From a virus (lineage: Duplodnaviria > Heunggongvirae > Uroviricota > Caudoviricetes), in IMG/VR virus record IMGVR_UViG_2529292828_000009: a stretch of DNA of 64,000 bases, one strand, 5' to 3'. Below are positions 40,539-61,754 of the stretch, in pieces. The notes beneath the pieces were generated by a model, which was not told where the DNA came from, did not search any database, and worked only from the letters and a program-made list of their open reading frames with translations. Both the position numbers and the translations under genes were made by a program. Positions within the stretch are counted from its first letter, which is position 1. Every line of letters starts with the position of its first letter.

Positions 40539-40557
40539 TAGACAGGAGACAGTCACA

Positions 40558-41664: not shown

Positions 41665-41728
41665 CGCTTCAGGGCCCCGGTAAAGGGGCCTTGCTATCAA
41701 TTTGTCATTTCAATTACGCGAAATTTAT

Positions 41729-42709: not shown

Positions 42710-42716
42710 GCGTTCA

Positions 42717-43367
42717 TTAATTTGATTTATTCGCATCCATCAACGCTTTTAACTCCTCCGGCGTAAAAGGTGGTTTGCGTCGGTGCAACATCGCATGGCA
42801 ATTAGGACACACAGGAAGCAAATCATTAACTGGATCCAGCAGGTAATCCTCTTTAACGGCTGAAAGCGGCACCAGGTGATGCATATGGATAAAGCCCTCA
42901 GCGATATCGCCATAGATCTTCACCAGATCAACGCCGCATACGTTGCACTGGCATCCGTGATATTCGACTGCTTTCTCGCGAGCTTTTTTATCGCGTTCAT
43001 AGCGGTTTACCGTCACCTTTATCGCCGCACCTTCAACGTAGGTCCCCTGCGACGGCAACTCATCCGGGAACAGAACATCGGCTATGGGAGCCGCAGCGGC
43101 TTTATCCTGATGAATATGAAATCCCTGATCTATAAGTAGTTTGACGCATTTAGATTTTATTCCGCCGGTGAAATCCGCAGGGGTAAATTGCGTCCCCGTC
43201 ATCAATGTCGCTGCGATGCCAGCAATCGCCTTCGAGGGGTAACGTCGGCCATGATATTCAATTTCATACAACCGTGCAGGCTGGAACTGATGAGTTTCTC
43301 CCGCATCCCATAAATGAATAGCTTCGATGATATACCGCCGCGGAAGATGATCGGGGAGTTTATTCAT
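42717..43367 (-). CDS. HNH endonuclease family protein with uncharacterised N-terminal domain (possible restriction/defence nuclease)
   Basis: C-terminal CQCNVCG...HMHHLVP...CPNCHAMLH zinc-finger HNH motif. Confidence 0.6.
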   Translation of the reverse strand: MNKLPDHLPRRYIIEAIHLWDAGETHQFQPARLYEIEYHGRRYPSKAIAGIAATLMTGTQFTPADFTGGIKSKCVKLLIDQGFHIHQDKAAAAPIADVLFPDELPSQGTYVEGAAIKVTVNRYERDKKAREKAVEYHGCQCNVCGVDLVKIYGDIAEGFIHMHHLVPLSAVKEDYLLDPVNDLLPVCPNCHAMLHRRKPPFTPEELKALMDANKSN

Positions 43368-43446
43368 AGAGAATGTCCTTATACGTTCTCAGAACAAGCA
43401 GCAAAAAAACAAATGAGATCAAAGTAATATATCTTCACTTGCAGGC

Positions 43447-43689
43447 TTGAACAGCAGAAAATTTGCGAGCATGATCGCAATTATTTCACTGCCAGGGATA
43501 TCAATGGCTTCCAGTAAATCGCTACAGCAGGCAATTGCCAATATAAAAATCTGGCATAAGGGTGAACAGCGCGCACCGCATAAACCATTGTTATTGCTAT
43601 ACGTATTAGCGGGATACCTGAATGGACATCCACGCCTTTTCGATTATTGTAGTGGAACAGTCTACGAGGATGCAGTTCGAAGTGAGTAA
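43447..43689 (+). CDS. Hypothetical small protein, possibly a gene fragment
   Basis: 80 aa ORF, no strong motif. Confidence 0.25.
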   Translation: MNSRKFASMIAIISLPGISMASSKSLQQAIANIKIWHKGEQRAPHKPLLLLYVLAGYLNGHPRLFDYCSGTVYEDAVRSE

Positions 43690-43745
43690 GTAAAGGTTGC
43701 TGGAAACGATCAATGCCGCCATACAATGATATTTGAGGATCAACA

Positions 43746-43931
43746 ATGAGTAATAAAAACTACGAAAGTCACCGCAAAGCGATTGTTAGTAAAGGTATAC
43801 CACCCGCTCTATTAAATAGGCTCACCAATTCGGATGTTCAGGTGATCAATACCTTCTTAACACGAGTGAGCAAACTGGAACTATCTCAACAAGAGAAAGA
43901 CTGGATCATAAAAATCATCTCTATGGTTTAG
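43746..43931 (+). CDS. Hypothetical small protein, possibly a gene fragment
   Basis: 61 aa ORF. Confidence 0.25.
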   Translation: MSNKNYESHRKAIVSKGIPPALLNRLTNSDVQVINTFLTRVSKLELSQQEKDWIIKIISMV

Positions 43932-44131
43932 AGAATTTCAGCCTTGTAGCCTTTCAAGGGTTTTGTGTGGGTACAAACATTATCGAATCGGGATATAGCC
44001 GCAGCTGTAGCTGTATCCACATCAGTAAGTTGATGTAGGTTGACTTAGGTTGAGCGAAAAATAGCGAAAAGCCTTGTGTGGCGCGGATTTCAGTCATAAA
44101 AAAACGTCCGTTGACGTCTATTGATGTTCCG

Positions 44132-44167
44132 ATGGTGCGAAGGTGCGAAGGTGCGAAGGCCGGACTC
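44132..44167 (-). repeat. Degenerate att-type direct repeat (tRNA 3'-end-like) with three tandem GGTGCGAA octamers
   Basis: TGGTGCGAAGGTGCGAAGGTGCGAAGGCCGGACTCG; last part matches the repeat at 55785..55808. Confidence 0.5.
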
Positions 44168-44519
44168 GCATATTCATTTAAATTGTTGTAAAAAATGGAT
44201 TTTATTAATAATTAATTCAATTATGCCCCCTTTTGTGCCCCCTCCATTCGCTGTTCACATTTTGATTTTTGTTGATTATTTATCCAAAAATTATCGAAGA
44301 AATAGTCAATCCAGTTAGGTTCCGTTAAACGGATCCAAACCGGGACTTGACTCAACAAAAAATACTTTTTTTTCGCAAAACCATGCACACTATTCACTCT
44401 GCAACTTTTAATTTATATATCAATTGGTTATGTATTAACAGTTAGGTGAAGAGTGAACTGCTATCTCTACATTCGTACGTTTCCAATAAGAAACCCGGCA
44501 TCAGCCGGGTTAGTTGTAA

Positions 44520-46844
44520 TTATTTGATTGTTAGCTCATCACACTTGGGAAGCCAGTCTGCATTACTTTCCTCTTTTAAAGTGAGGTTAGTCTGCATTCC
44601 CTGATTAGTTCGCCGCTTCTCATAATTTAGCCCGTATTCCTTCAGCATAACTGGTAGCCCTTTGCCAAACATTGTCAGGCTAAGGGTATTTTTAAAGCCA
44701 TTAGCCTCCATGTATACGAGATAGGCATGGTAAAGGTACGTACGTGGCTGGCGCGGGACAATATTGGCGTTCCCCATAAACATGCCGTTGGTGTCAGGTA
44801 ATGCCTCAAGGTAGCCACAAAAATCAAATGCTGGATCAGCATCACGCTTGATGGTGAGAGCCTCATCAGAATTCTGCTGCGACTGAAGCAATGTTCTGGC
44901 GCTCATCGGATCGCTGAAACGCTGCATGAGCTGACGAACAATCACAGCCAGTTCTCGTGCAATTTTATCTTTCAACTGCGGATCGCGTTCTTCCGGTGCT
45001 ATCTGCTCAGGAAAATGCAGAATAACTCTCCTGCGGGACACACCACCACTGCGATCAGTGAAGCGCATAGGATTATTATTTACGGCCAAGATAACCGCCG
45101 GAATATGTGTTGAATAAGCATTCTGATATTTGGGGTCCACAGATACTGCATCGCCACCAGTTATAGCCTTAAGCCCGGCGCCGTCGCCGCTCCACTTCTC
45201 CTGATCAGGCAGGCGAATAAGAGAAAAACCTATCAGAGCCGCACGTTCTCGCGGGGACTCCAGCGTTTCAATGGTCGCAGAGGTGGCGTTATCCTCTCCA
45301 GCAAGCATGGTCGCAATTTCAGCCAGAATACTTTTGCCACTTCCACCAGGGCCAGTCACTTCCAGAAAGAGCTGCCAGTCATAACGGTTCGCCAGCACCA
45401 TAAATAACGCTGCAAGAATAATGTCGCGTTTTGCTGGCTTGTGTCCGGCGGCCCGGTCCAACCAACGCCAGAATGCCGGGGCATGAGTTTCAAGCGTTTC
45501 CCCCTTTACCGGTGGCGTGAAATCGACTTCACACAGGGTACGCAGCCAGTTCTCTTTACAGTGCGGACTAAAAAGCCCTGTTCGCGTATCGAGAACGCCA
45601 TTACGAAAACCAATCAGATGACGTGACGGATTTTGCTGCTGCGGAACAATTAACTTTAATGTTTCCACCAGTGAGGCAATTTTTCCTGAGGAAAACGGTG
45701 CCCCGAGGCGCTGGAAAAGGGCTGCGACATCTCGGGCAAAATCTGACTGAGAAATAACTTTCCACGCTCCAGACTCGTAGCGGGATAAAAGCTGCCCGTT
45801 CGGATCAACCGCCAGTGCATCCCTGTAATGCTCCCGAACCCTCTGAGCTTTTTCGCTGACACTCATCGCTGTGAATTCTGCTTCACTCATTGTGTCGAAA
45901 GGACTGGCGTTATGTGGCTTCAAAGCCTCAAGAATTGCCTTCCGGGTGGATTCCTCTCCGTATTGGGTAAGCGCATCATTCCAGTCACCAAAAACCGGTG
46001 GCAGCACAATGTCACACTGACTCGCTTTTGCAGCAGTTTCAGCCCTGTTCTGGCCTGAACCATTCAGATCGCGGTCCGCTGCAATAATTAACTGATATCC
46101 AGGATACTTATTATGGGCAACGCTGCTCAGAGAAAGAAAGTTGACCGACGAAAATGCCACCATGACGGCTTCTCCTGTCAAATAATGAATGGTAAGCGCC
46201 GTGGCGTAACCTTCCGTAATCCAAATCCTTCTTACAGAACTCCCGCCCCCTTCTATCAGATGATAGGCCTCCTTAACCTGACCTCCTTTAAGAAAACACT
46301 TGCTACCATTGCTACTGATAAGCTGAATATTCACCAGCTCCCCGTCAGCGTTATAGAGTGGGACGATCAAATCACCGGGGCGGAACATCACACCACCGGC
46401 CTTATGAGCTGAAGTCAGCTCATGGCAAATATGCTCCGGGAAACCTTTATGTGTAAGATAAGTGTTTCCGGCAGATTCACGCGAGGCTTGCAGCAGTCGC
46501 GCGGCAAGTGCTGCCGCTGCATCTTTCCCGCTATCGGTATCGGCGGTTAACGTCCTGACCTCGGAATTAACTATAGACAGATCATGTGTCAGTCCATGTA
46601 TCCTGTCAGCTGCTTCACTGATATCCACATTCAGTGCCCTGGTGACAAGCGCTAAACCATCCCCGGCTCCGCACTGATTGCAGAACCATGTTCCGCGTCC
46701 TTCCTGATCGTCGAAGCGAAAACGATCTTTACCGCCACAGACCGGGCAAGGCTGATGGCGATTTTTCAATATATTCACGCCCAGCGCTGGCAGAATCTGA
46801 GCCCAGTGACCGCGGGCAGCCTTCACGGCCTGACTGACTTTCAT
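44520..46844 (-). CDS. P4 alpha-like primase-helicase (start at internal Met)
   Basis: Zinc-binding CPVCGGKD...CNQCG N-terminus, central primase region, C-terminal Walker A GPGGSGKS. Confidence 0.85.
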   Translation of the reverse strand: MKVSQAVKAARGHWAQILPALGVNILKNRHQPCPVCGGKDRFRFDDQEGRGTWFCNQCGAGDGLALVTRALNVDISEAADRIHGLTHDLSIVNSEVRTLTADTDSGKDAAAALAARLLQASRESAGNTYLTHKGFPEHICHELTSAHKAGGVMFRPGDLIVPLYNADGELVNIQLISSNGSKCFLKGGQVKEAYHLIEGGGSSVRRIWITEGYATALTIHYLTGEAVMVAFSSVNFLSLSSVAHNKYPGYQLIIAADRDLNGSGQNRAETAAKASQCDIVLPPVFGDWNDALTQYGEESTRKAILEALKPHNASPFDTMSEAEFTAMSVSEKAQRVREHYRDALAVDPNGQLLSRYESGAWKVISQSDFARDVAALFQRLGAPFSSGKIASLVETLKLIVPQQQNPSRHLIGFRNGVLDTRTGLFSPHCKENWLRTLCEVDFTPPVKGETLETHAPAFWRWLDRAAGHKPAKRDIILAALFMVLANRYDWQLFLEVTGPGGSGKSILAEIATMLAGEDNATSATIETLESPRERAALIGFSLIRLPDQEKWSGDGAGLKAITGGDAVSVDPKYQNAYSTHIPAVILAVNNNPMRFTDRSGGVSRRRVILHFPEQIAPEERDPQLKDKIARELAVIVRQLMQRFSDPMSARTLLQSQQNSDEALTIKRDADPAFDFCGYLEALPDTNGMFMGNANIVPRQPRTYLYHAYLVYMEANGFKNTLSLTMFGKGLPVMLKEYGLNYEKRRTNQGMQTNLTLKEESNADWLPKCDELTIK

Positions 46845-46867
46845 TCCTGACATGACGCAGTTCTCCC

Positions 46868-47191
46868 TCAGTGTAAAACCGGCTTTTTGATGTGACGGAC
46901 GCATAACTCATCCATTACGGCTATTCCGAGCTGGGAGAGTGCGGGACAGGACATTAGAGGGCCGTATTCCATCAGGTCTGAAAGCAGGGCGCAGGCGATT
47001 TCCATGCCTTTTGTTTGCCCGTGCTGTCGCAGATAAAATCCTTCAAGCTCACGGGCAATAGCGGTTTCAATTTCATCCAGAGTGAGCTGCAGATGGCGGT
47101 TTTGCTGATAGCAGGCACTCAACCAGGCGCAGGCTACCGCGCGGCGATACAACGCTACCCGAAGTGAAAGGGAAAGAGTGCGTGATTTCAT
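46868..47191 (-). CDS. Hypothetical protein of the P4-like left operon
   Basis: 107 aa ORF directly upstream of alpha. Confidence 0.4.
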
Positions 47192-47412
47192 TGCACCACC
47201 TCCATGTTCATGAGGTCATCCTGGCAACGCTGTACCACGCCATCAAGCTGCTCTGTCATCAGATAAATCAGGGAAACCAGTTGTTCACATTGAGCACTGG
47301 CAGGTTTTTCGTAGCAATCCTGAAGAACAGCCATTCCAGTGACAAACTCTCCCACGTTACGAAGATGCTTCAGGCGGAGAATATCGTCATAAGAGATTGC
47401 GGCGTGATTCAT
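47188..47412 (-). CDS. Hypothetical small protein (position equivalent to P4 epsilon; start at internal Met)
   Basis: ORF between immunity region and alpha operon. Confidence 0.35.
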
Positions 47413-47599
47413 TAGATCACCTCCCGGACAGGCAGGCGAGCAGCAAGACAAAGCACATACTCATGGACCAGTGAAAGACGTGCATGATGCTCATTGCTGG
47501 CGATGATACGCAGCATACTGATACGTGGTTTACGTTCTGCACGACGAACGGCGGCAAAAACAAATATAAATTGAGGATGTGACGGGGCGAGGATCGTAG

Positions 47600-47870
47600 C
47601 CATAAGGGCAACCTCCAATAAGTAGCGGTAAATGCCACCACCGGAGTTCCTACGCTCATGGGTGGTGACCCGAACGGGGGTAGGAATACCGGCCTTATTG
47701 GAAACCGGCCAGCCCGAAGGCTGCCCCGCCCGGACCACCATTATCTGAAAGGGGCTAAGGTATAAGCACCGCAGCCCGAAAAATGGGTGTGCCTGAGCAA
47801 CGACGTAAAAAAAGACGCACGGCGCGTCTGGTGTCGCCAATAAGTAACTCGGGTTCCTACGCCCGGCAGC
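47600..47870 (-). ncRNA. Candidate P4-type CI-like immunity RNA region
   Basis: Two direct copies of CCAATAAGTA...GGNGTTCCTACGC (~47615-47655, ~47837-47862) flank a complementary segment GGGGGTAGGAATACCGGCCTTATTGG (~47676-47702); hairpin + T-run on minus strand at ~47796-47828. Confidence 0.4.
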
Positions 47871-47956
47871 CGATTTTGCGGCAGCGGGAAAACTATACCT
47901 GGAAAAGATATCAGGACGCAAGCCAGAAAAAAGGAGATGAGACTGCAAAGCAAGTT

Positions 47957-48217
47957 TCACGCATGGCCTCCTTGCTCGCGGGCAGCAATTCGCGCCGCCA
48001 TCCATGCACTGACCTCCGACTGTACCCAGGCCACATTTTTTCCACCCAGGGATATCTGCTGCGGGAAGGCATCGCGGCTGATAAGGTCGTAGATGGTTGA
48101 ACGGGATAGCCCGCAAAGGTGCATCACTTCAGGTAATCGTATGAAGCGCTCCTGCTGAGCCGGAACCGGGAGCACCGGAGCAGCTGGTGCCGGGGTGGAA
48201 ACGGAAATACTATTCAT
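47957..48217 (-). CDS. AlpA-family transcriptional regulator
   Basis: 86 aa; [23 protein letters not shown] typical of AlpA. Confidence 0.8.
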
Positions 48218-48860
48218 CTGGCTACCTCTCTAATATGTTTACAACAGTCCGGGCAATTCCATGCGGATTCAGGTAGCTCCTTATTATGTTTATATAAGCG
48301 GCTCGCGCATGCTTTATTTATTTTGTGTGAAATGTTGATTTCTCAAAAAATAAAACAGCTAAAAACCGTATGAAACGAACAAAAACAAACAATTCCTTTA
48401 TGGAATATAATAAGGAGCATCAATAATAAAAAAGTCTATTACACTAGGCAGGATCACAGCTCAAATCTGAACCAGCCCATATCATTCAGGGCTTTACATC
48501 ATAAGCACTAAGACAACACCTGATTAATAAAAGAGCCAAAAACGGCCAAAAATAAACAGCTCACCATATGTATCAATAAATCCGATGATTAAAGAAATTA
48601 AATTACCATCTTACTTCCGCATGTATCCGAATGTGTTTAATGAACATCAGACAAATTCATTTTTATGAATATTTTCCTGAAATGCAACTGAGTGCAGGGA
48701 GGTTGAATGTTCAATTATTAAACAGATATAAGACATCTTTTATTCTTTACATAGAATATGTATTGAATACTGGTGAATATTGGTGAGGAGAAAAGATCCA
48801 GTAATAAACTGAAATAAATATCGCGACTTATATGAAAAAGAAATATATGTTTAATTTTAT

Positions 48861-48970
48861 CTCTGTGAACAGTCATGAACAGTAGATGATCACTTTAATT
48901 AAAACACTACACCACTTAACCACATGTATTTACTATATTTTTATTGAAGTGAACAGTAGTGAATAGTATG
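48861..48970. repeat. Cluster of GTGAACAG-like octamer repeats (candidate alpha-binding iterons)
   Basis: gtgaacag / atgaacag / gtgaacag / gtgaatag within ~110 bp of AT-rich intergenic DNA. Confidence 0.35.
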
Positions 48971-49122
48971 TATTAAAGGAAGCGTGTAGATCAGACATGA
49001 CACCTTTCTCTGGCTAGCCAGAACAAGGTCATTGTTCAGTCACTGACACAATCCTCCTCGGTAGTGCGCTTGTATGGACCCCGGCACAATTGACACAACA
49101 ACAAAACACTACCGGAGCAGCC

Positions 49123-49875
49123 ATGACAACTGTTAACCAGATCTCTGATGCAAACATTACCCCCACCCTCCCGCCGAAAATTCGCGAAGCGGTGGAAAAA
49201 GTTAAGGCAGCAAAAGCTGTCTGGCAGGAAGAACGGCGAAAACAAACCGAAGCTGCTGCAATGACTGAAACTATCCGTAAACGTCAGGAAGATACAAAAA
49301 CGGAGACGCAGGCGCTTAATGATGAATGGCGAAACCTGTTTCGTGAGAATCAGGGGAATATGACGCCACGAATGAAAAAACTGCGGGCAGAAATCGCCCT
49401 CGGACGCGAAACACTAGATGAGTTCGAAGATTTGCTGGCTGCTCAGGCTGCAGAAAATGAATTCCTGCCATGGAAAACTGCGGATGCTGCAAACCGCTAC
49501 ATCAGCGAACATAATCACCTGATTGAAACTCATGCAGTGTGGCTCTGGAATGAGTTTATGAAGGAACACGGCCAGAAACTTATTCAGATCCTTGGACTGC
49601 TGAAAATGACTCTGGGCCGAAGCGCATCTTCTGTTATCGGTGTAGTTCATACCGTAAACGACCCCGAAAGTGTGCTGAAGCAATTTATCAGCGAGCAACT
49701 CACCACTCCGGCACTGTTCTGTAACGTATCTTCAACGGATGATATTGCCCTGCCGGGGATCAGCATTTATGCGGACGATAAAGCCATACAGGATGCCAGA
49801 CAATCACCCAGCCCTGCAGCACGTTCCCGGATGCTTAAACAGCGTGACATGGCTAAAGGGGGCGAGAAGGAATGA
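49123..49875 (+). CDS. Sid-like capsid size-determination protein (putative)
   Basis: Coiled-coil-rich ORF directly upstream of psu; GGAG RBS before internal ATG. Confidence 0.5.
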   Translation: MTTVNQISDANITPTLPPKIREAVEKVKAAKAVWQEERRKQTEAAAMTETIRKRQEDTKTETQALNDEWRNLFRENQGNMTPRMKKLRAEIALGRETLDEFEDLLAAQAAENEFLPWKTADAANRYISEHNHLIETHAVWLWNEFMKEHGQKLIQILGLLKMTLGRSASSVIGVVHTVNDPESVLKQFISEQLTTPALFCNVSSTDDIALPGISIYADDKAIQDARQSPSPAARSRMLKQRDMAKGGEKE

Positions 49876-50426
49876 ATACCGGAACCATTACTCAGGAAGC
49901 TCTCAACGATTACCGCGCGGCAATAAAAAGCTGGCTGACACTACGTAATGTGCAAAGTACCAGCCAGCTTCGTCTGGCTGCTTTGCTGGATACTGAAGAA
50001 AAACCCGCAGCATATGCCAGCCAACTTGAGGATCTTCGTGAGCGTCTTGCACTCCTCGAATGGCAGATTAACTGTGCCGCCCGGGATGGTCTTTATGCTC
50101 ACCAGATTGTGCTGGAAAGCTGTGTTACAAGCGCAACTGAAAACTTCATGAGCGAGCATGGTGATGCACTCACTGACGCTCTGGCTCCTTTTCTTTGTGC
50201 ACCATACGGGCTTGAGGCGGCAATGAAAATATTACGAACCGCTGTAGCCCGACAAACGGAAGTCCGTACTCCGGTAATTTCAGCAGCATATAAGAGCATT
50301 ATCGACGAAACCGGATTAACGGTGGATGCATCAATGCGCGCTGATGCTTCAGCCAGTTTCACCCCGGCACAACATAAAGTTTTCCTGGCCCGCCTTAACC
50401 GACTTAATGAAAAAGGAGTGTGCTGA
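49872..50426 (+). CDS. psu: Polarity suppression protein Psu
   Basis: 184 aa; segments resemble P4 Psu as recalled (FTPAQ..., HGxAL..ALAP). Confidence 0.75.
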   Translation: MNTGTITQEALNDYRAAIKSWLTLRNVQSTSQLRLAALLDTEEKPAAYASQLEDLRERLALLEWQINCAARDGLYAHQIVLESCVTSATENFMSEHGDALTDALAPFLCAPYGLEAAMKILRTAVARQTEVRTPVISAAYKSIIDETGLTVDASMRADASASFTPAQHKVFLARLNRLNEKGVC

Positions 50427-50427
50427 T

Positions 50428-50700
50428 ATGGCCCTGAAGTGTCCTGAATGTGGCGCGGTCGCTCACGCCAGAACCAGCGCCTATGAAGCTCCGTCGGTTA
50501 AACGCTCATGGTATCAGTGCCAGAATCTGGAATGTTCCTGCACATTTACCGCACTGGAAAGCGTGGATACGATAATTATGAAGCCTCGGTGCAATGAACA
50601 GGAATCAGACAAAGCAAAAATACCGGAAAAACAACAGCAAACTCTCAATCGCTATGGCTCCGCGTCAAAGCTGTCAAACCGTCAGCAAATTCCTGTCTGA
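50428..50700 (+). CDS. Ogr/Delta-family zinc-finger late transcription activator
   Basis: CPECGAVAHARTS...YQCQNLECSCTF pattern as in P2 Ogr. Confidence 0.8.
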   Translation: MALKCPECGAVAHARTSAYEAPSVKRSWYQCQNLECSCTFTALESVDTIIMKPRCNEQESDKAKIPEKQQQTLNRYGSASKLSNRQQIPV

Positions 50701-50723
50701 TTAGCAAAATACGACCACGAAGT

Positions 50724-50747
50724 CCCGGTCCAGTACCGGGATTTTTT
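50724..50747 (+). terminator. Rho-independent terminator after delta
   Basis: CCCGGT-loop-ACCGGG hairpin followed by T-run. Confidence 0.5.
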
Positions 50748-50791
50748 ACGCCTTTTCCCTGGCTGGCCTGAGAGCGTATGAGTGCATATCT

Positions 50792-50830
50792 ATGGCGCAT
50801 GAAAACGCATGAGTCTCATGCGCCATTTTT
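50792..50830 (+). terminator. Second hairpin + T-run
   Basis: 11-bp stem ATGGCGCATGA/TCATGCGCCAT followed by TTTTT. Confidence 0.4.
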
Positions 50831-51306
50831 GACGCGAAAGCCCTTGTGTGGTGGCTTCTGAGACGATTTACGGGGTGCATGAAAACCAGTCTGTTAAGCG
50901 AAGCTGGCAGGCGGGCGGGGCTGCTCGCGCTAAGGGAGAAAATAGCAAACTCAGCCGCGCAGGCGGTGACAATGATTGACGAGATACTGGCTGGCAGTTG
51001 CTGAAATCTCCGCAATGATTCAAGAACTGCAGTGTATCGATGCAGCACACGTAAACTGAGCGGCGCTACGGGTAATATTTATAGATTTGTCATCCTTAGT
51101 GAGCATGGTTCTCACTCTTGTAACCTCTACCTGTACAAGATATCGTAAGACCTCAGATCAAACATGCACGTGTATTAAAGGTGGGCAAGCGTGGCGGGAA
51201 GATAATTGTGCGCACTGTAGTCAAAGATAGGGATTGTGATTACTTTTTCTTCCAGCCGTGGTGTAGTAAATTATTGGGAACAAACTCTTAATGACATCAA
51301 TGGATA

Positions 51307-52605
51307 ATGATTATGACTACAAATCCGGACGGATACATCTCATTTTTAAAACCCGGTAGTAACGACTGGAAAGCATTAGATAGTAAATCGTTTATTTATT
51401 GGCGAGACTACATAACGAATGAAAGTTTAGAAGAGTCAGGAGATTCTATTTCTCCAGCACAATCTCTTACTGATGGTGAAAAGAAGGAGTTGAAAGACAA
51501 TCAGGCATATATAAACGAACTATTACTAAAATCATTACAATTCCCAAATCTTGCATTCTTCGCTGGGAGTGGTACTTCGCTTGGGGACGTTGGAGGACCA
51601 AGCATGTGGGATCTCTGGAAGTGTGCAATGTGGAGTGAATCTTCTATAAACGAGGATGGTCAATTAAAACCTGATGCTCAAATTGTTTGTGATAAAGTAA
51701 AATATAAAGAGCGAGAGTATCCTAACATAGAACACTTTCTTTCTAATTGTGAAGCATATTTAGCATTTCATGATGATGAAGAAGTGTTGAATTTTTTAAA
51801 TAAAGTTAAAACAATTATTTTAGACAAATGTCGCTCATTTATTGATGATGGCAACTGTGATCTTTCAGCTTACATCAATTTATTACAAAAAATGGGGAGG
51901 AGGAGAGTCAGAGATCCTAGACTAAAAGTTTTCACAACTAACTATGATTTAGCCTTTGAAACAGCTGCTTCTGAATTAGGAATGATGGTAGTTGATGGTC
52001 TTTCATATACAGGAGTTCGCAGATTCGATGGTAAATATTTTAACTACGATGTTGTTAAAAGAGATGAAAACGAGCATGAGTTTGTAGAGGGCGTATTCCA
52101 GTTATTTAAACTCCACGGTTCTGTAAGTTGGATAAGAAAGGATGGGCAAATATATGAATCCAGCCAACCAACAGCAACAAACGCATGTCTAATATATCCA
52201 GCGAAAGGTAAATATCAGCAAGCCTTTATTCAACCTCACTTAGAATTACTTTCAAGATTGTTAGATTTCTTGAGAAAAAGAAATAACTGTTTAGTTATAT
52301 CTGGATTTGGTTTCAATGATGACCATCTTTCTGAACCAATTTACTCAGCAATAAAATCCAATCCAAGCATGAGGTTGATTATAGTAGATTTCAAATGTGC
52401 AACTCATATTCGGAATAAAGGGGGGGACGGTTCTAGTAAATATTGGGATTTACTAAAACAACTCTCACTATCAGGTTATGACATTCACTTCATAAATGCA
52501 TCTTTCAGTGATTTTGTTAAATTAGTTCCCAATCTTAAAGCATTAACCCCAGCAGAACAGTTGGCTAAGGTAATAAAACAAGTAGGAGTTAACAATCAAT
52601 TATGA
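51307..52605 (+). CDS. SIR2-like NADase domain protein (candidate anti-phage effector)
   Basis: Motifs FFAGSGTS...GPSMW, TTNYD and KLHGS resemble SIR2-family NAD-binding/catalytic motifs. Confidence 0.75.
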   Translation: MIMTTNPDGYISFLKPGSNDWKALDSKSFIYWRDYITNESLEESGDSISPAQSLTDGEKKELKDNQAYINELLLKSLQFPNLAFFAGSGTSLGDVGGPSMWDLWKCAMWSESSINEDGQLKPDAQIVCDKVKYKEREYPNIEHFLSNCEAYLAFHDDEEVLNFLNKVKTIILDKCRSFIDDGNCDLSAYINLLQKMGRRRVRDPRLKVFTTNYDLAFETAASELGMMVVDGLSYTGVRRFDGKYFNYDVVKRDENEHEFVEGVFQLFKLHGSVSWIRKDGQIYESSQPTATNACLIYPAKGKYQQAFIQPHLELLSRLLDFLRKRNNCLVISGFGFNDDHLSEPIYSAIKSNPSMRLIIVDFKCATHIRNKGGDGSSKYWDLLKQLSLSGYDIHFINASFSDFVKLVPNLKALTPAEQLAKVIKQVGVNNQL

Positions 52606-54323
52606 TTAATACAACACTACAGCTTGGTATTTTGAGGGGCGACCTTAAGGTTGGAGTAGTCTCATCAATTTTTGCTCAAACAGTTAGAGCAAATTTAATC
52701 TATGCAGGGGAACTCAGCGGAACATATATAGAAGGTTGTAGATATGGAAAAGGAGAAGTTGGTGAAATATTATTAATAGAAGGACAACAATCTATTGTTC
52801 TTGGCCGTTTAATAGAGGTTAAATTACCAGAGCGAGATAGAGGTGAAATATCTGTCGGGTCTCAAGGAAACTTCAAAGTTGATGCTATCGGCATTATACA
52901 ACTTCTTGGAACTATTGATCCTTCAAATTTTAGAATTGATTCAGGAATCAAATCATATCCTCGATTAGGAGATCGAGTTTATTCTGCTCCCTTAGATTTT
53001 ATTTCTTTAATACCAGAATTAATTAATAAAGGAATTAAAGATAACGAGGAAGAAAGAATAGGTATTGTATTAGGCATTATATCTGGAGGGGCAACAAGTA
53101 TAGTAACTGTTGAACCTGATAAACTCTTCGGTCGTCATTGTGCTATCTTAGGAGCTACAGGCGGTGGAAAAAGTTGGACAACTTCCAAGTTAATTGAAGA
53201 GTGTTCGAATTACGAAAACTCTAAAACTATAATAATTGATGCAACCAGTGAGTATAGATCGTTTAAATCTGATTATTGTTTACATTACCATTTAGGTGCC
53301 CCAATAAATAAAAACATAAATTCTTTAGAATTTAGAATTCCACCTACCGACTTTGTTGAGTCAGACTTTATTGCCATGTTCGATCCTTCTGGAAAAGTAC
53401 AGGGTCCTAAGCTAAAAGAAGCGATAAAAAGCCTTAGATTAGTAGCTTTAGAACCTAGAATAGCAACCGATGGTATTTTAAAAAAAATCAATCAACCTAA
53501 AACAGATTATCGACGCGCAATGAATACTGGAGACAACTCTAAACTTGTTGATAATCCATCACAACCATTTGATATAACAAAACTTATAAAACAGATTGTA
53601 CAAGAATGTTGTTACGATAATGGAGATAATACTTGGGGAAACGCTGCAACTCAAGACTTAAGCTATTGCTCATCTTTGTTAACCAGAATTCAAGCAGTAA
53701 CGTATGCCAACTCGTTAAGGTCTGTTTTTAATAGTAACGAGGATATATCCACACTAGGTGAAATATTAGAAACTTTTTTACAATCTGATAAACGAGTCCT
53801 AAGGTTATGCCTAAGTGATGTTAGCTATGAGTTTTATGCTAGAGAAATTTTAGCCAATGTAATCGGCAGAAAACTTTTAACTTTAGCTAGGCTTGAAAAA
53901 TTCAGAACAAGACCGCTGTTAGTTATTGTTGATGAAGCCCATAACTTCCTTGGCAAACGGGTTGGTTCTGAAGATCATGCAATTAAACTTGACGCTTTTG
54001 AGATGATTGCAAAAGAAGGCAGGAAATATGGCCTTAATATATGCTTAACAACTCAAAGACCCAGAGATATCACTGAAGGTGTGCTTAGTCAAATTGGAAC
54101 CTTATTGGTTCATCGCTTAACAAACGACCGAGATCGAGAAGTCGTTGAGCGTGCATGCGGTGAAATTGATAAATCTGCAGCATCTTTTCTACCAAGTCTC
54201 AAACAAGGTGAAGTTGCTCTTGTAGGGGTTGACTTCCCTATTCCTATGACCATCCAGATAGATAAGCCAATATATCCACCAGAATCTGATTCTCCAGGCT
54301 ATTGCAATATATGGAAAAAATAA
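52602..54323 (+). CDS. HerA/FtsK-like ATPase (partner of SIR2-like protein)
   Basis: Walker A GATGGGKS, Walker B LLVIVDEAHNF; start overlaps upstream stop (ATGA). Confidence 0.75.
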   Translation: MINTTLQLGILRGDLKVGVVSSIFAQTVRANLIYAGELSGTYIEGCRYGKGEVGEILLIEGQQSIVLGRLIEVKLPERDRGEISVGSQGNFKVDAIGIIQLLGTIDPSNFRIDSGIKSYPRLGDRVYSAPLDFISLIPELINKGIKDNEEERIGIVLGIISGGATSIVTVEPDKLFGRHCAILGATGGGKSWTTSKLIEECSNYENSKTIIIDATSEYRSFKSDYCLHYHLGAPINKNINSLEFRIPPTDFVESDFIAMFDPSGKVQGPKLKEAIKSLRLVALEPRIATDGILKKINQPKTDYRRAMNTGDNSKLVDNPSQPFDITKLIKQIVQECCYDNGDNTWGNAATQDLSYCSSLLTRIQAVTYANSLRSVFNSNEDISTLGEILETFLQSDKRVLRLCLSDVSYEFYAREILANVIGRKLLTLARLEKFRTRPLLVIVDEAHNFLGKRVGSEDHAIKLDAFEMIAKEGRKYGLNICLTTQRPRDITEGVLSQIGTLLVHRLTNDRDREVVERACGEIDKSAASFLPSLKQGEVALVGVDFPIPMTIQIDKPIYPPESDSPGYCNIWKK

Positions 54324-54326
54324 TTA

Positions 54327-54346
54327 GTAGGGTCTTTGACCCTACT
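54327..54346. terminator. Bidirectional hairpin terminator between convergent HerA-like gene and int
   Basis: GTAGGGTC-TTTG-GACCCTAC with T-rich flanks on both strands. Confidence 0.45.
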
Positions 54347-54361
54347 TTAAAATTTTTAAAG

Positions 54362-55633
54362 CTAGATAGTTTTTTTTGCAAAGTCGTAGGGGGTTATATA
54401 TTCCTGAGTGTTAGCATCAAGATAATCGGCCCACCACTGAACCATTAAACGACGCTCATCCAAATGCTCTGAAGTATGAATATAAGCAGCCCTAACGCTA
54501 TTACGCTCAGAGTGGCTTAGCTGACGTTCTATCGCGTCATCACTCCACAACCCTGATTCGCCCAAAGCACCGCGCGCCATAGTTCTGAATCCATGCCCGC
54601 AAACTTCGGTTTTTGTGTCATACCCCATTGTGCGCAAAGCACTGTTAACCGTGTTTTCACTCATAACTTTAGTTGCGTCATGATCTCCCGGAAACAGTAG
54701 CTCTTTATCACCACTAATCTGCTTAAGCTGCTCTAACAAAATCATCGCCTGCCGACTAAGCGGAACGATATGCTCCTCTTTCATCTTCATCCCACGGTAC
54801 GAGTAACGGACACCTTTAATTTCTTCTCGTTTTGCCGGTATACGCCAAAGAGATTTATCGAAGTCGAATTCATCCCAGCGAGCGAAACGCAACTCACTGG
54901 AACGCACAAAAGTTAGTAAGGAAAGCTCGACTGCAATCCGTGTCATTAAACGGCCACGATATGCAGCAAGACGTGCAAGAAACTCAGGGAAACGGTTAGA
55001 GGGTAAAGCTGGATAGTGTCGTGCTTTGGTTGTCGATAAAGCACCAGCCATATCACTGGCTGGGTTTGAGTCGATATAATCGTTCTGTACGGCATAACGC
55101 ATAATAGCTGTAACACGCTGCTGAAGACGCTGCGCGACGTCATGCTTACCACTGGCATCAACTTTTTTAATCGGGGCTAACAGGTGGCTTGTTTTAAGCT
55201 GGCGGATATCGGACGATCCGATATGAGGGAAGATATAAAGCTCAAGATAGCGAAGAACGCGCGCTCTATGGTCTTCACTCCAGCGCTTGTTACTGGCATG
55301 CCATTCACGAGCGATCGTTTCGAAAGTATATGCCCCCGATTTCTCGGCCTGAGCCGCTTTCTGCTCGGCTTTTGGATCAATACCCTGCACTAATAATCTT
55401 TTAGCTTCATCACGTTTTGCCCTTGCCTGGGCAAGTGTCACAGTAGGCCAAACGCCAAAAGCGAGGCGATCCTCTTTTTTGTCTGAAGGGCGTCTGTATT
55501 TCATACGCCAGTATTTAGATCCCTTGGCCGAAACCTCAAGATACAAACCGCCACCATCGGCCATTTTGTAGGTTTTGTCTTTTGGCTTTGCGGTCTCGAC
55601 CAGTCTGGCGTTGAGCTTCATTTGGGGGCACAT
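54362..55633 (-). CDS. P4-type tyrosine integrase
   Basis: 423 aa; C-terminal R...H..R...Y catalytic pattern; adjacent to att repeat. Confidence 0.9.
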   Translation of the reverse strand: MCPQMKLNARLVETAKPKDKTYKMADGGGLYLEVSAKGSKYWRMKYRRPSDKKEDRLAFGVWPTVTLAQARAKRDEAKRLLVQGIDPKAEQKAAQAEKSGAYTFETIAREWHASNKRWSEDHRARVLRYLELYIFPHIGSSDIRQLKTSHLLAPIKKVDASGKHDVAQRLQQRVTAIMRYAVQNDYIDSNPASDMAGALSTTKARHYPALPSNRFPEFLARLAAYRGRLMTRIAVELSLLTFVRSSELRFARWDEFDFDKSLWRIPAKREEIKGVRYSYRGMKMKEEHIVPLSRQAMILLEQLKQISGDKELLFPGDHDATKVMSENTVNSALRTMGYDTKTEVCGHGFRTMARGALGESGLWSDDAIERQLSHSERNSVRAAYIHTSEHLDERRLMVQWWADYLDANTQEYITPYDFAKKTI

Positions 55634-55784
55634 TTCTAATCGAAGTCAAGATGCCCCTAATTATGCCCCCAATGGCATCCGGATTTCAACGGACAATCTC
55701 GGACGACTCCGGACATAAGAATCACTGTACTCATTGAATTATAAGGAACAATTGGACTTTCTCGGATGATCTTGGAAGTGCTAA

Positions 55785-55808
55785 TGGTGCCGAAGGCCGG
55801 ACTCGAAC
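55785..55808 (-). repeat. att repeat: 24-nt copy of a tRNA 3' end (tRNA-Leu-like), not an intact tRNA
   Basis: TGGTGCCGAAGGCCGGACTCGAAC is the reverse complement of ...GTTCGAGTCCGGCCTTCGGCACCA; sequence beyond it does not continue as a tRNA. Confidence 0.7.
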
Positions 55809-56155
55809 ATCGCAACTATCCTTATGATCTTTAGTAATTAAAGCAATCTACATTGTCGATGATACCATCATTGATACCATCAGACCCGATTGATGATAAT
55901 CGAACAGTAATAAAATATGACTAAACAATTTATGCTTCAACATAAGATTGAATGCTTTGATCTACCATTTTAATGCAGTGGAAAAATTTTTAACACAATA
56001 CTTAAGAAAAATAATTTCATATAAAAACTACATTTCATTTCATATAGTTAACACACCAAAAACAACTGTATATAAACCCAGTAAAAAATGGTAGAATCAC
56101 TATTGTGTTCAATTGTTGAACATTTATAATACATTTGTCGGATAGGGGGGTGTTT

Positions 56156-56743
56156 ATGCAAAGGAACACATACAACAAAGTAGGTCTATACATCCTATCT
56201 TTAGCTATGCTTTTTGTTTTTATTATTATCCTGACTGCCAAAATCCCCTTTTGCTTCACTTCGGATTGTAGCTTCATAGGTTTGAAGAGACTTGTATTAA
56301 CAAATATTGTTCCTATTGTTTGCTTTGTATTTTTTCTATTTAGTATTTATTTTTATAATAGATTAAAAAACATAACAAAATACAATGGACAAGATAGCGT
56401 TAAAATAACATCATGTCAAAGCGAAAGCTATGAAAGTTTAACATTCTTAGCAACATACATTGTACCTTTTATGGGGTTTAGTTTTGAAGACATGCAAAAG
56501 AATATAGCATATCTTTTGCTTGTAGTAGTAATAGGCATTATTTTTATTAAAACAGACAAGTATTATGCGAATCCAACTTTAGCTCTGTTTGGCTTTAAAC
56601 TATACAGGGTAAATATACTACACCCAGGAAGTGGAGAAACAAAAAATCTGATAGCTATTTCAAATGATGTATTAAAAGTGGACGATAATGTTTATTATAG
56701 TTTCTTTGATGAATTTGTTTTTATAGCAAGGAAAAAAATATGA
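56156..56743 (+). CDS. Four-TM membrane protein, KwaA-like (putative Kiwa component)
   Basis: Four hydrophobic helices; GGGGGG RBS before ATG; ATGA overlap with downstream gene. Confidence 0.45.
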   Translation: MQRNTYNKVGLYILSLAMLFVFIIILTAKIPFCFTSDCSFIGLKRLVLTNIVPIVCFVFFLFSIYFYNRLKNITKYNGQDSVKITSCQSESYESLTFLATYIVPFMGFSFEDMQKNIAYLLLVVVIGIIFIKTDKYYANPTLALFGFKLYRVNILHPGSGETKNLIAISNDVLKVDDNVYYSFFDEFVFIARKKI

Positions 56744-57687
56744 CTACTCAGCAGTTAAAAGAAAAAATTTCAAAAATAATTGATAACTTTAGCGGAATCA
56801 GGGTTGTATTTACTACTACTGCTAATGAACTAAAGCTTTCCAGAATTGAAGGGAGTGCATTAAATAGCATAGCTGAAGGGTTTATTGACAAAATCAAAGA
56901 AGACATTATAAATAATGAAGATCTCACCTCACCATTGCTGTCCAATTTTGATGATAGAAAAAATGCCTTGTTTAAATTTGATTACGAACAATATCCTGAA
57001 GAATTTAACAAAATCACTCAGGCCATCGCTATCCCTCCTAACTCACAAGATTATTATAACCCTTTAAATAAATTCACAGATGTGAAAGGAATTATAATTT
57101 TAATAAGTGGAGATAACAAATGCCTGGCTCTTTATAAAAACAAAACTAACCTTGCAGTATTGAGAAATAGCAGAAAAATGTTTAATTTAGTCCCTGACCC
57201 TGATGGATACTTGAAACAACTCCCTAATGAGATATTACGGTTAGATTTCAATTATGATCTATTATCAATTGGTGAGGATTTTTACATTAAAAATCACAAG
57301 ACTCTTGAAACTCAAATGAAATTTCATCAAGTGATTGAAGCCCAGGCAGTTATTGCTTTAAATTCTTTACGGGATTCACTACTAATTGAAGACATATCAG
57401 GTTTAGAAAAGAGTTCGAGAGAAATTTCATTCGCTAGAAAGTTGGCAAAAATCTCCAAACATTCTCCTGTTTTGGGGAAAATAGATACTAAAACAATTAT
57501 CGATTATGTATCCCAACATAAATATTTATCTGCAATACTTCAGATTAATGAAGCAGGAAATAAGTTATTAATTAAAACCAAGACATCACAGAAGCATTTC
57601 ATTAAACTCATGAGCGATGATTATTTACAATCAGATCTAACTAAAATAATATACATGAGCATAGCAAAAGACAGATTAGATGAATAG
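56740..57687 (+). CDS. Soluble ~315 aa protein, KwaB-like (putative Kiwa component)
   Basis: Size and operon architecture match Kiwa; no motif verified. Confidence 0.4.
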   Translation: MTTQQLKEKISKIIDNFSGIRVVFTTTANELKLSRIEGSALNSIAEGFIDKIKEDIINNEDLTSPLLSNFDDRKNALFKFDYEQYPEEFNKITQAIAIPPNSQDYYNPLNKFTDVKGIIILISGDNKCLALYKNKTNLAVLRNSRKMFNLVPDPDGYLKQLPNEILRLDFNYDLLSIGEDFYIKNHKTLETQMKFHQVIEAQAVIALNSLRDSLLIEDISGLEKSSREISFARKLAKISKHSPVLGKIDTKTIIDYVSQHKYLSAILQINEAGNKLLIKTKTSQKHFIKLMSDDYLQSDLTKIIYMSIAKDRLDE

Positions 57688-57700
57688 AATTTTAAGTAGA

Positions 57701-57745
57701 AGTGACAAATATTATAAACCATTCTTGAAATATATTTGTCACTAT
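57701..57745. terminator. Inverted repeat between convergent genes (bidirectional terminator candidate)
   Basis: GTGACAAATAT ... ATATTTGTCAC. Confidence 0.35.
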
Positions 57746-57751
57746 TACTAA

Positions 57752-58423
57752 TCATTCGCGTGCTTGATTATTTATGCTGGATGTTCTAATTGTTGCCGAA
57801 TGCCAATACCCACCACTATATGTTCTTGCTATAGTAATAAATCCAGTACAGGTAATTACTGTCATTAAAATCAGGAAAATATAATAGAAATTAAGCGGAG
57901 CTTTCAAATCAAAAGGAGGTAACGAATACACCAGCAACCCTATCCATACAATAGTTATAAATAAACTAATAATTTGGTTTATCTTAGATACTGATATTGG
58001 AGATGGACCAGTAAGTAAATGAACCGAAAACTCTTTTATTCCTTTCGGTTTTGCACGAGATAACACCACTTTATATAGTGGACCATTAATATTATCTTCT
58101 AACATATCGACATGTTTTTCCCAGTTTCCCTGCCAATATTTACTACCACGGTTAACACAGAGCCAACCGAATGAAAATACAATTCCCAGTGAACACAGTA
58201 ATACGGATAAATCTGTCTTAGCTGTAGAAGAGGAAGTCTGTATAGCAACAAAACCAGCTAAAGTTGCCGCTATAAAAGTCCAGAAATAAGTTGCTCTTTT
58301 CCAGTAATGGTCTATCTCATATTTCCGTATATCTAAAGCCTGTAGCAGAGCATTCTTATTACAGTCTCTATCATTAAGAAAACGGCTACGATATTCCTCA
58401 TCTGAAAATGGAGTAATTGGCAT
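57752..58423 (-). CDS. Four-TM membrane protein co-oriented downstream of the RM fusion gene
   Basis: 223 aa; four hydrophobic helices. Confidence 0.55.
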   Translation of the reverse strand: MPITPFSDEEYRSRFLNDRDCNKNALLQALDIRKYEIDHYWKRATYFWTFIAATLAGFVAIQTSSSTAKTDLSVLLCSLGIVFSFGWLCVNRGSKYWQGNWEKHVDMLEDNINGPLYKVVLSRAKPKGIKEFSVHLLTGPSPISVSKINQIISLFITIVWIGLLVYSLPPFDLKAPLNFYYIFLILMTVITCTGFITIARTYSGGYWHSATIRTSSINNQARE

Positions 58424-58475
58424 ATTGATTTACCTCTATTTATAATAGTAAAAGAGGGGTCCCCCCCCCTCTTTT

Positions 58476-61400
58476 TTAGTTATTTTTAAACAAAACCTTT
58501 ACTATTCCATCTATATCCCTTAGGAAACTCTCGAAAGAGGATCTATTAGCCTTAGCTTCATGAGCCTTTTTTGAAAGTTCAGACAGCTCACGATGCTTTT
58601 TATTACCTTCATCATAAAGAGGAACATTAATTGGAGGTCTGATTTTAAAAGTTCTGCTATCACTGGACTTCAGAATGTACTCCCCAGTGATTGATGAGTT
58701 AAAAATAGCACAAATGTAATGTGCCTCATCCAGGGTAATAAATTTACCATCTTGCCTCTGAGATATACTCACAGCATGGTTCTGAAATAAAGGTCTCTTT
58801 TTGTCACCCCATGGAGTATCCATTTGACTCACAACTGCTGCTGCCCATTTAGTGTTATCACGAAAACAAACAAAATGATCACCATAAGTATATTCACCTA
58901 CACGAGCCAATGCGTAAAATGCAGTAATATTGCTTTTACCTATGATTTTGTCATTGTATCGAGTCTGCGACTCTAATAACTGTTTATTATTAATGAAATA
59001 GTCAGCCAACATAGGGCTTTCTTTAACAAGCTCATCTACAGGTATCGGTTTACGACTCAATTCTCTATATGGAAAGGGTACGAAGAACTCAACATCTTTT
59101 ACCCCAAAAGGTTCAATATTTGTTCCTTTAATCAGGGGGTATATATGCTTGGTTTCAGCAAAAATCATTTGTTTTGCCACTTTATACTTAGACTTGCCAC
59201 CCTGATAATTTTCAAAAATTGCAGTGTTGTTAGCTTTTTTTGTCTTAAATTTCCATAAGAATAATTCTTGAGGGAAAAATTCAATCCCTTCCCTGCCATG
59301 ATATTCGCAATATCCACTGATATTTCTGTAATCATTGAGTTTTTCGGAATCTGAAGCATATGTAAAGGCTGTATTGCTTACACTAACAGTGCCAGCGATC
59401 TCTTTACGGATAGAGAACTCATGCGAAATAGCATTAAAATGCGTATGCTGTGAGTAGCTATCAAGGCTTCTTCCGGTTTTATTTTTCGTCAAAAATGTTA
59501 AAGGTATCCCTTTTAAATAATCGACATTTTTTGACGAGAATAAATAAGTCGCAAACTTGATTGTAACAGGCTTGAATGGATGCCCGGATTCACTCCAGTC
59601 GTATACCTCTTGGAGATATAGTTTTTGGTTATCCCCAAAGTTAAACTCTCGAAATCCTTCATATGTTTGCTGGAAAAGGATATTTTGAGGCATAAGGAAT
59701 GCCAATATGCCATCTTTCTCTAACCAGTTTTCAGCAGATACATTAGAAATTAATGCACAAATGTTAAGGTTTATACCACCAGTAAGCCTATCACCAGAAA
59801 ATAGGCTCCTACTTAAGCATAAGCCTTTAATTCGTTCTCGATATCCTGCAGGTAAATTTTTCCAGTCAATCCATGGTGGATTACCAACAACCATATTAAA
59901 TTTGCCTAAGTTTGCAGTGGTCAAAAAATTAGTGACTATTCTAGCCCAAATTCCATTCCAGTCTCTTTCTTCTAGTTCGACAAACTTATCTGATAAAGTT
60001 TTTAATTTTTCATAAATGCTAGGAGAACTACTAATATCCCCACTTACTTCGATTAATTTTGCAAAAACACTATCACGATCTCGAAGTTTAATATATCGTT
60101 CAATATCAACAATTGCTTTTGAGAACTTATGAGAATCACTCAAAGCTTGAGTAGGCATCTCGATATAAATCGAGCCTTGCAAAGTATTTATTTCGTATCG
60201 CAAACAGTCAATGCCATCAATTATGACCTTTTCTGGAACATACGATGCGTCACCAAGATAAATTGGAATTTCAACTTCGCTACCTTCATCAAGCAAATGT
60301 GATATATTGATGAAATAGTTGATTCTTGCAGTTAAAGCTGCAAGAGGATTTAAATCAATACCTTTGACAGATGTTATGACATCTTTTAATTTAGCTTTGC
60401 TATCAGTATGAGTACGACTCAGAACTTTACCTATTAATGTAATTATAAAGGTTCCGCTACCACAACATGGATCAATTGCAGTCCAGTTGTTCTTATTTAC
60501 AACATGCTCTTCAGCAGAGGATATCAAATGCTCTGCAAGCCATTCAGGAGTGTAAAATTCTCCAAGAGAATGTCTTACTTTATCAGGAATAATGTTCATG
60601 TATAGATCTTTGAAAAGATCGTATACTTTTTCACCCTCTTTGAAAAGGTTTCCTTCCTCATATTCACTTAGTAATGAAAATATATTTTTAATACTAATGA
60701 ATATATCATCTCCCCATTGTTCCTTAGTACAATACCAAGAGAAAAAGTCACCTTCCAGCAGGTTCAAAATCCCATACTTCCTGAAAATAGCACCTTCTTC
60801 TAATGTGTATAAATAGTTTCTCATTGATTCAGAGTTACTATTGATCATATCTGAAAAATTATAATCATTTTCAAATACAAGTCCAGATAATGTTTTATAA
60901 GCTATTATTTTTACAATAATCGCATATGCAGTCTGGAGAGCATAAAGAACTTTATATTCATCATCGTTAGTAAGTAACCTATGACCAGCAATATCTTCAA
61001 GTGATAACTTTCGTTCTAAAATTGCTGTTTGCTGAGATTTATCATCATGTGCAAGTCTAAATAGCTCCTTCCATTCGTTGAAGAGCATTTGAGAGCGGCC
61101 CGTCATGTTATTTTCAAGAGCCGAAAGAAGATTACCTATTAATTGAGTTGTTAAAGATGGAGATCCATAGCAAAAATCATCAACGATGTTTTTTGGATGC
61201 AATGCCTTCTTATTCAAAAGAACTAAAAGCCCGCAAATTTTTTTAATTGCATTCTTATCAAGCGGTTGCAACTTTGATGTTAAAATGCCATCAGTATCAC
61301 GAATAAGGTAATTAATACCGTCTGTTAGCACTCCAACATAGCGTTGATTCCCTTCTAACTTTAAAGAATCAAGGTAAGCCTGGATTTGAAGCACAGCCTT

Positions 61401-61754
61401 ATTAATATCATTATCTTTTTTTAATTTCTCTCTATGCTTAAACTCTATTACTAAAGATCCAATACGACTATCGATACGCCCCTTACTGTTGCTTCTGCCG
61501 GTCGTGTTGTATTTAATACCATCAATAAAAATTTCTTTTTCGGGACGGTAATCAATACCAATGAAATCTTTAATGAAAGGAATAAAAGCAAGGTCGAAAC
61601 CAGAAACAACTTCTGCTTCATTTTTGGCTAAATATGAGGACTCATTAATTTTTTTAGATATAATATCAGCAGCTAAAAGAAAATCTGAGTCAGTAACAAT
61701 CTTTTCTTGAGCTTTGAACTTAATTTTTTTTTGAATTTCTTCTAACACAGCCAT
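58476..61754 (-). CDS. Type IIG-like restriction-modification fusion enzyme (N-terminal PD-(D/E)xK-like nuclease + N6-adenine methyltransferase)
   Basis: EFYTPEWLAEHL, motif I DPCCGSGTFI, motif IV GNPPWIDW; N-terminal D...EFK; ~470 aa C-terminal region as target-recognition domain. Confidence 0.7.
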   Translation of the reverse strand: MAVLEEIQKKIKFKAQEKIVTDSDFLLAADIISKKINESSYLAKNEAEVVSGFDLAFIPFIKDFIGIDYRPEKEIFIDGIKYNTTGRSNSKGRIDSRIGSLVIEFKHREKLKKDNDINKAVLQIQAYLDSLKLEGNQRYVGVLTDGINYLIRDTDGILTSKLQPLDKNAIKKICGLLVLLNKKALHPKNIVDDFCYGSPSLTTQLIGNLLSALENNMTGRSQMLFNEWKELFRLAHDDKSQQTAILERKLSLEDIAGHRLLTNDDEYKVLYALQTAYAIIVKIIAYKTLSGLVFENDYNFSDMINSNSESMRNYLYTLEEGAIFRKYGILNLLEGDFFSWYCTKEQWGDDIFISIKNIFSLLSEYEEGNLFKEGEKVYDLFKDLYMNIIPDKVRHSLGEFYTPEWLAEHLISSAEEHVVNKNNWTAIDPCCGSGTFIITLIGKVLSRTHTDSKAKLKDVITSVKGIDLNPLAALTARINYFINISHLLDEGSEVEIPIYLGDASYVPEKVIIDGIDCLRYEINTLQGSIYIEMPTQALSDSHKFSKAIVDIERYIKLRDRDSVFAKLIEVSGDISSSPSIYEKLKTLSDKFVELEERDWNGIWARIVTNFLTTANLGKFNMVVGNPPWIDWKNLPAGYRERIKGLCLSRSLFSGDRLTGGINLNICALISNVSAENWLEKDGILAFLMPQNILFQQTYEGFREFNFGDNQKLYLQEVYDWSESGHPFKPVTIKFATYLFSSKNVDYLKGIPLTFLTKNKTGRSLDSYSQHTHFNAISHEFSIRKEIAGTVSVSNTAFTYASDSEKLNDYRNISGYCEYHGREGIEFFPQELFLWKFKTKKANNTAIFENYQGGKSKYKVAKQMIFAETKHIYPLIKGTNIEPFGVKDVEFFVPFPYRELSRKPIPVDELVKESPMLADYFINNKQLLESQTRYNDKIIGKSNITAFYALARVGEYTYGDHFVCFRDNTKWAAAVVSQMDTPWGDKKRPLFQNHAVSISQRQDGKFITLDEAHYICAIFNSSITGEYILKSSDSRTFKIRPPINVPLYDEGNKKHRELSELSKKAHEAKANRSSFESFLRDIDGIVKVLFKNN

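Follow-up and report, generated by a model that had tools for sequence, protein, structure and literature searches.

Kiwa is a well-studied bacterial anti-phage system whose protective unit consists of two genes, and defence is lost when either of them is deleted (PMC11785009). KwaA has four transmembrane (TM) helices and a cytoplasmic beta-barrel, and its tetramers are bridged by KwaB dimers to form a fence-like supercomplex in the membrane (PMC11785009). KwaB foci appear at the sites of phage attachment before DNA ejection, and the mutations by which phages escape Kiwa map to tail fibres, suggesting that a perturbation of the membrane is sensed (PMC11785009). Via the channel of its DUF4868 domain, KwaB binds both single- and double-stranded DNA non-specifically, without cutting it (PMC11785009). 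Under Kiwa, phages replicate less DNA and under-express their late genes, and the cells survive, making the defence non-abortive (PMC11785009). The lambda protein Gam binds and inhibits KwaB, and RecBCD competes for Gam, so that Kiwa and RecBCD shield each other (PMC11785009). The exact membrane signal and the stalling of replication forks are themselves inferred in the literature, and the reported drop in phage DNA is only about 25%.

The reference Kiwa locus is that of E. coli O55:H7 strain RM12579 (KwaA, WP_001189512.1; KwaB, WP_000211629.1 / KWAB_ECORM), for whose proteins cryo-EM and crystal structures are available (PDB 9MRG, 9MRR, 9MRX, 9MTN, 9NYU and 9O0I). As cited in PMC11785009, Doron et al. 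2018 found the RM12579 system to be protective against lambda and SECphi18, and resistance has been shown for five other Kiwa operons (PMC11785009). Here we describe a gene pair that almost certainly represents an intact two-gene Kiwa operon, a near-identical allele of that of RM12579, on a predicted mobile island at a tRNA-Leu gene.

Layout and family membership of kwaA and kwaB

The window, a 64,000-nucleotide stretch of a Caudoviricetes record in IMG/VR (IMGVR_UViG_2529292828_000009), carries two co-oriented overlapping genes at 56156-57687. kwaA (56156..56743, + strand) codes for a 195-residue four-TM membrane protein, the Kiwa sensor and scaffold subunit, and lies directly 5' of kwaB (56740..57687, + strand), which codes for a 315-residue soluble DNA-binding effector composed of a Rossmann-like N-domain and DUF4868. 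The TGA stop codon of kwaA occupies 56741-56743 and the ATG of kwaB begins at 56740, yielding an ATGA overlap; the coordinates in the preliminary description were right to the base. In the mechanical list of open reading frames kwaA begins at a TTG at 56135, whereas the 195-residue form begins at the ATG at 56156 and is the one used in the PDB chains and in the NCBI annotation of close homologues. A Shine-Dalgarno-like G-run, GGGGGG (56145..56150, + strand), read from the sequence five bases 5' of this ATG, may support a start at 56156. The two reading frames run their full length, uninterrupted by a frameshift or a premature stop.

The AT-rich intergenic region upstream of kwaA (55809..56155, + strand) is conserved with the Kiwa loci of RM12579 and BA22372 and presumably holds the predicted native promoter. 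A promoter-like scan of 55800-58500 gave 11 sites versus 15.1 expected from shuffles, none of them above chance. The GC content is 0.29-0.32 over 56000-58000 versus about 0.50 in core-like DNA at 45000-50500, in agreement with the AT-rich block noted earlier. Downstream, the gap between kwaB and a convergent membrane-protein gene, termed 8xMP after its Pfam family, contains an inverted repeat (57687..57757, no strand assigned) with 26-nt arms at 57687-57712 and 57732-57757 that are 81% complementary in a repeat search. Its predicted RNA fold has an energy of -16.9 kcal/mol (z = -5.4), a value that none of 200 shuffles reached. Within the kwaA-kwaB operon, a terminator-like hairpin is found only after kwaB, and it is likely a bidirectional terminator, closing the two-gene operon at its 3' end. 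Given the ATGA coupling and this hairpin after kwaB, we consider the operon intact.

The Kiwa assignment had been made from architecture alone, and profile searches agree with it. KwaA matches the PADLOC model PDLC00219 over its full length (9.4e-77) and the NCBIfam equivalog NF041622 with 188.3 bits against a cut-off of 100; it has no match in Pfam. KwaB matches PADLOC PDLC00233 (1.7e-115, profile positions 1-315 of 320), the NCBIfam equivalog NF041623 (248.1 bits; cut-off, 200) and Pfam PF16162, KwaB/DUF4868 (105.5 bits; cut-off, 26.3). The HMM comparison proposed as a check, of the second protein with KwaB/DUF4868 and of the first with KwaA, thus returned full-length matches above the curated cut-offs. 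Chance can be excluded because the family matches have E-values of 1e-55 to 1e-115. Only Kiwa models were returned by PADLOC for the two proteins, and in PHROGs both match only families of unknown function.

Comparison with solved proteins revealed that KwaA is identical to the PDB entry 'Kiwa protein KwaA' at 194 of 195 residues (99.5%; 9mrg_A, also 9MRR and 9MRX) and KwaB to 'Kiwa protein KwaB' at 313 of 315 (99.4%; 9mrx_K, also 9MTN and 9NYU). In a Kyte-Doolittle plot with a 19-residue window, KwaA displays three strong hydrophobic segments (9-27, 46-64 and 113-131) and a fourth, weaker one that lies around 92-113 and peaks at about 1.1. Hydropathy alone is weak for TM3, and four TM helices are present in the structure solved for the protein identical at 194 of 195 residues (PMC11785009), consistent with the four hydrophobic helices first reported. 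The same plot gave no hydrophobic segment for KwaB, which bears out the description of a soluble protein of 315 residues. The public collection contains the exact sequences of KwaA, KwaB and the 8xMP protein. That of KwaB is WP_001725332.1 / EMW44926.1 of E. coli 2780750, named 'anti-phage protein KwaB', and homologous loci are labelled 'anti-phage protein KwaA/KwaB' in genome annotations.

Conservation of the allele and its putative mode of action

At the nucleotide level, kwaA differs from that of RM12579 at 2 of 588 positions and kwaB at 7 of 948. Translation of the RM12579 locus revealed exactly three substitutions: K45R in KwaA, and F175L and D274N in KwaB. We compared the residues listed in PMC11785009, mutation of which abolishes defence or DNA binding (PMC11785009). 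In KwaA, Lys75, Asn77, Tyr181, Phe183 and Lys194 at the interface and the contact residues Gln79, Asp80, His156 and Thr162 are kept, as are the interface residues Arg21, Arg35, Asn42, Pro100, Asn101, Gln103 and Tyr157 and the DNA-contact residues Asn134, Arg142, Arg167, Asp169, Lys187 and Arg233 of KwaB. The 'V76' of that paper is Tyr76 in both the reference KwaA and the window, and so marks no difference between the two. The F175L substitution falls where the DE loop of KwaB (residues 134-174) ends, and this loop contacts TM2 of KwaA. Positions 175 and 274 are Ala and Thr, respectively, in the 66%-identical E. coli KwaB of JSWP006, and are therefore taken to tolerate change, since both vary in this distant KwaB of functional type. 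From the identity of about 99%, the window allele, when expressed, would be expected to confer phage resistance and to reduce conjugation.

The mechanism has been established experimentally for the reference system and for other E. coli Kiwa systems, and is carried over to the present allele on the strength of the same identity. In this putative model, KwaB dimers would link inner-membrane tetramers of the four-TM KwaA into a fence-like supercomplex. The membrane would be perturbed when a phage attaches or ejects its DNA, and likewise during conjugation, and the KwaA array would sense this perturbation. KwaB, held at the entry site, would then bind the incoming DNA via the positively charged channel that its DUF4868 dimer forms. 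The DNA-bound KwaB would stall phage replication forks, resulting in a block of late transcription and virion morphogenesis, and the cell would be defended without being killed. The phage DNA mimic Gam could block KwaB, and co-resident RecBCD would titrate Gam, such that the two defences protect each other.

Alternative readings and the 8xMP neighbour

Two alternatives concern the gene pair itself. That it might be a different 4TM-plus-partner defence system resembling Kiwa only in architecture was a caveat of the preliminary description, and before the searches the assignment had indeed no other basis; we found nothing further in favour of this reading. Full-length, above-cut-off matches to KwaA and KwaB, the return of Kiwa models only by PADLOC and the 99.5% and 99.4% identity to PDB chains named as Kiwa proteins exclude it in practice, and we regard it as vanishingly improbable. 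A decaying or inactive copy, in which the family signature is kept and defence is lost, could be suspected from the rarity of the KwaB allele with F175L and D274N, found on one contig only in a collection of 15 billion proteins, and from the truncated Kiwa that does occur in E. coli ST2350. However, both frames of the window copy are full length, the few nucleotide changes relative to RM12579 lead to only one amino-acid change in KwaA and two in KwaB, none of the residues defined by mutation is altered, and natural variation occurs at the changed positions, which makes such decay highly improbable. The ST2350 locus (NZ_CP031321.1, 5590-6626), about 90% identical in nucleotides to the window copy, is itself an example of Kiwa decay: its kwaA is cut to 372 nt (123 residues) and its KwaB-like gene to 669 nt (222 residues), and it adjoins a P4-type integrase and an N-6 DNA methylase.

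A third alternative extends the system to a neighbouring gene. The 8xMP gene (57752-58423, - strand) codes for a 223-residue membrane protein of Pfam family PF24838 ('8xMP', 1.3e-39), which RefSeq names 'RipA family octameric membrane protein'. Consecutive accession numbers show the kwaA-kwaB-8xMP block to be retained in E. coli, Salmonella, Klebsiella, Enterobacter and Cronobacter, while the adjoining restriction-modification (RM) module is swapped from one strain to another. Conservation as a unit across several genera of Enterobacteriaceae, beside a swapped RM module, would fit a three-gene variant in which the convergent 8xMP/'RipA' gene serves this Kiwa clade as a functional accessory. 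Against this, the gene lies on the opposite strand and is separated from kwaB by the terminator-like hairpin, more distant E. coli Kiwa loci are without it, and the two kwa genes alone have been described as sufficient for protection, both being required (PMC11785009). Furthermore, at 80 loci of 8xMP homologues (35%-73% identity) from GTDB species genomes, phmmer (E<=0.01) detected neither KwaA nor KwaB, and these 80 loci share no conserved neighbour gene. Neither the 80 GTDB loci nor the distant E. coli Kiwa loci revealed co-occurrence of 8xMP with Kiwa outside a single island lineage of recent spread. We therefore judge the three-gene variant very unlikely, and a role of 8xMP as a Kiwa subunit was rejected given its absence from the distant Kiwa loci and the lack of Kiwa at the 80 homologous loci. 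Taken more broadly, the proposal that 8xMP is either functionally tied to this clade, as a second membrane layer or back-up effector, or a stand-alone defence gene hitch-hiking with Kiwa, seems to us unlikely. The gene is apparently a stand-alone membrane gene that is associated with Kiwa within a single island lineage.

Searches with the 8xMP protein beyond its own family gave few leads. In the PDB, neither the sequence nor a profile of 31 sequences detected a credible relative, the best hit being a geranylgeranyl pyrophosphate synthase at E = 0.021 that we judged to be a chance match; PHROGs had no match. In the literature, 'RipA' and 8xMP, sought in the sense of an octameric membrane protein, led only to RIPA buffer, Ralstonia Rip effectors and the like, and no source of the NCBI name 'RipA' turned up.

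Island borders, flanking defence genes and related loci

The Kiwa operon is preceded directly on its left by a P4-like satellite, with an alpha primase-helicase (44520-46904), Psu (49872-50426), Ogr/Delta (50326-50700) and an integrase (54362-55633). Between Delta and the integrase, the satellite carries a SIR2-HerA pair (51307-54323, + strand; PADLOC SIR2, 7e-82; HerA, 1.7e-166). The window is E. coli DNA, and several complete E. coli genomes match its positions 40000-55800 with 100% identity. In E. coli D6 the P4-like satellite abuts a complete tRNA-Leu gene, of which the window has only a 3'-end fragment of about 24 nt (55784..55808, - strand), an att-type repeat at the left border of the Kiwa island; as far as this fragment the window and D6 are identical. 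After 55808 the sequence switches to DNA common to the Kiwa islands of BA22372 and RM12579, and megablast homology to Kiwa-bearing genomes starts at 55775-55785. The tRNA-Leu at this border is probably leuX, from its fim/nan neighbourhood. The tRNA-Leu signal in the megablast annotations corresponds to the 24-nt 3' fragment alone, and ARAGORN detected no complete tRNA anywhere in the window. Since a tRNA-Leu 3' fragment lies at the satellite/Kiwa junction and no complete tRNA is found in the window, the two mobile elements have probably inserted in tandem at a shared att site, and the intact tRNA presumably lies past position 64000.

To the right of 8xMP, a single-polypeptide Type IIG RM enzyme of 1092 residues is encoded at 58476-61754 (- strand; PADLOC REase_MTase_IIG, 2.3e-156; Pfam Eco57I and N6_Mtase). 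An RM enzyme had been placed beside the pair; such an enzyme is indeed nearby, but the 223-residue membrane-protein gene intervenes. A strong G+C hairpin (58450-58475) separates the Type IIG gene from 8xMP. Strain 602354 and RM12579 hold an HsdM-like methylase and a hypothetical protein at this position. Farther right, the overlapping genes of a DhiT/DhiA toxin-antitoxin pair (62364-63135, + strand) were assigned by NCBIfam: DhiT (DUF4160) matches NF048015 with 107.7 bits, above the cut-off of 100, whereas DhiA matches NF048016 with 132.9 bits, below the cut-off of 200. The pair is located where the BA22372 island ceases to be homologous to the window, at about 61922.

Defence genes are densely stacked around the tRNA-Leu att site, namely SIR2-HerA on the P4-like satellite, Kiwa, 8xMP, the Type IIG RM enzyme and DhiT/DhiA. 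The locus illustrates tandem island integration and module swapping beside a fixed Kiwa block. Beyond correct annotation the window Kiwa is of little importance, its value being contextual.

Among named loci, the other E. coli Kiwa clades (JSWP006, and ECOR49, the mutagenesis strain of PMC11785009) share the same two genes and family models with the window, and their interface and DNA-binding residues are mostly conserved; the KwaB proteins of JSWP006 and the window are identical at 208 of 315 residues (66%). They differ from the window in genomic context and are without the 8xMP neighbour. BA22372 (NZ_CP040397.1) has the same kwaA-kwaB-8xMP-Type IIG RM order, with 97.7% identity over 6.1 kb and five substitutions each in KwaA and KwaB relative to the window. 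Its island is without a P4-like satellite at the left, and its homology stops before the DhiT/DhiA module; the BA22372 and RM12579 islands run on with a relaxase and three tyrosine recombinases.

RM12579 and the window have in common the gene order, the lengths of 195 and 315 residues, the 4-nt overlap, the upstream region and the downstream 8xMP gene, with 98.4% nucleotide identity over the block, and in both a mobilisable island bears an att-type tRNA-Leu fragment at its border. They differ in the RM module, a Type IIG single polypeptide in the window versus the methylase and hypothetical protein in RM12579, and in the left flank, where the window has the P4-like satellite with SIR2-HerA and RM12579 has Zorya II and other genes. 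The window Kiwa belongs to a system that is already known, having been discovered, tested, structurally solved and modelled in PADLOC, Pfam and NCBIfam, and is one more copy of it.
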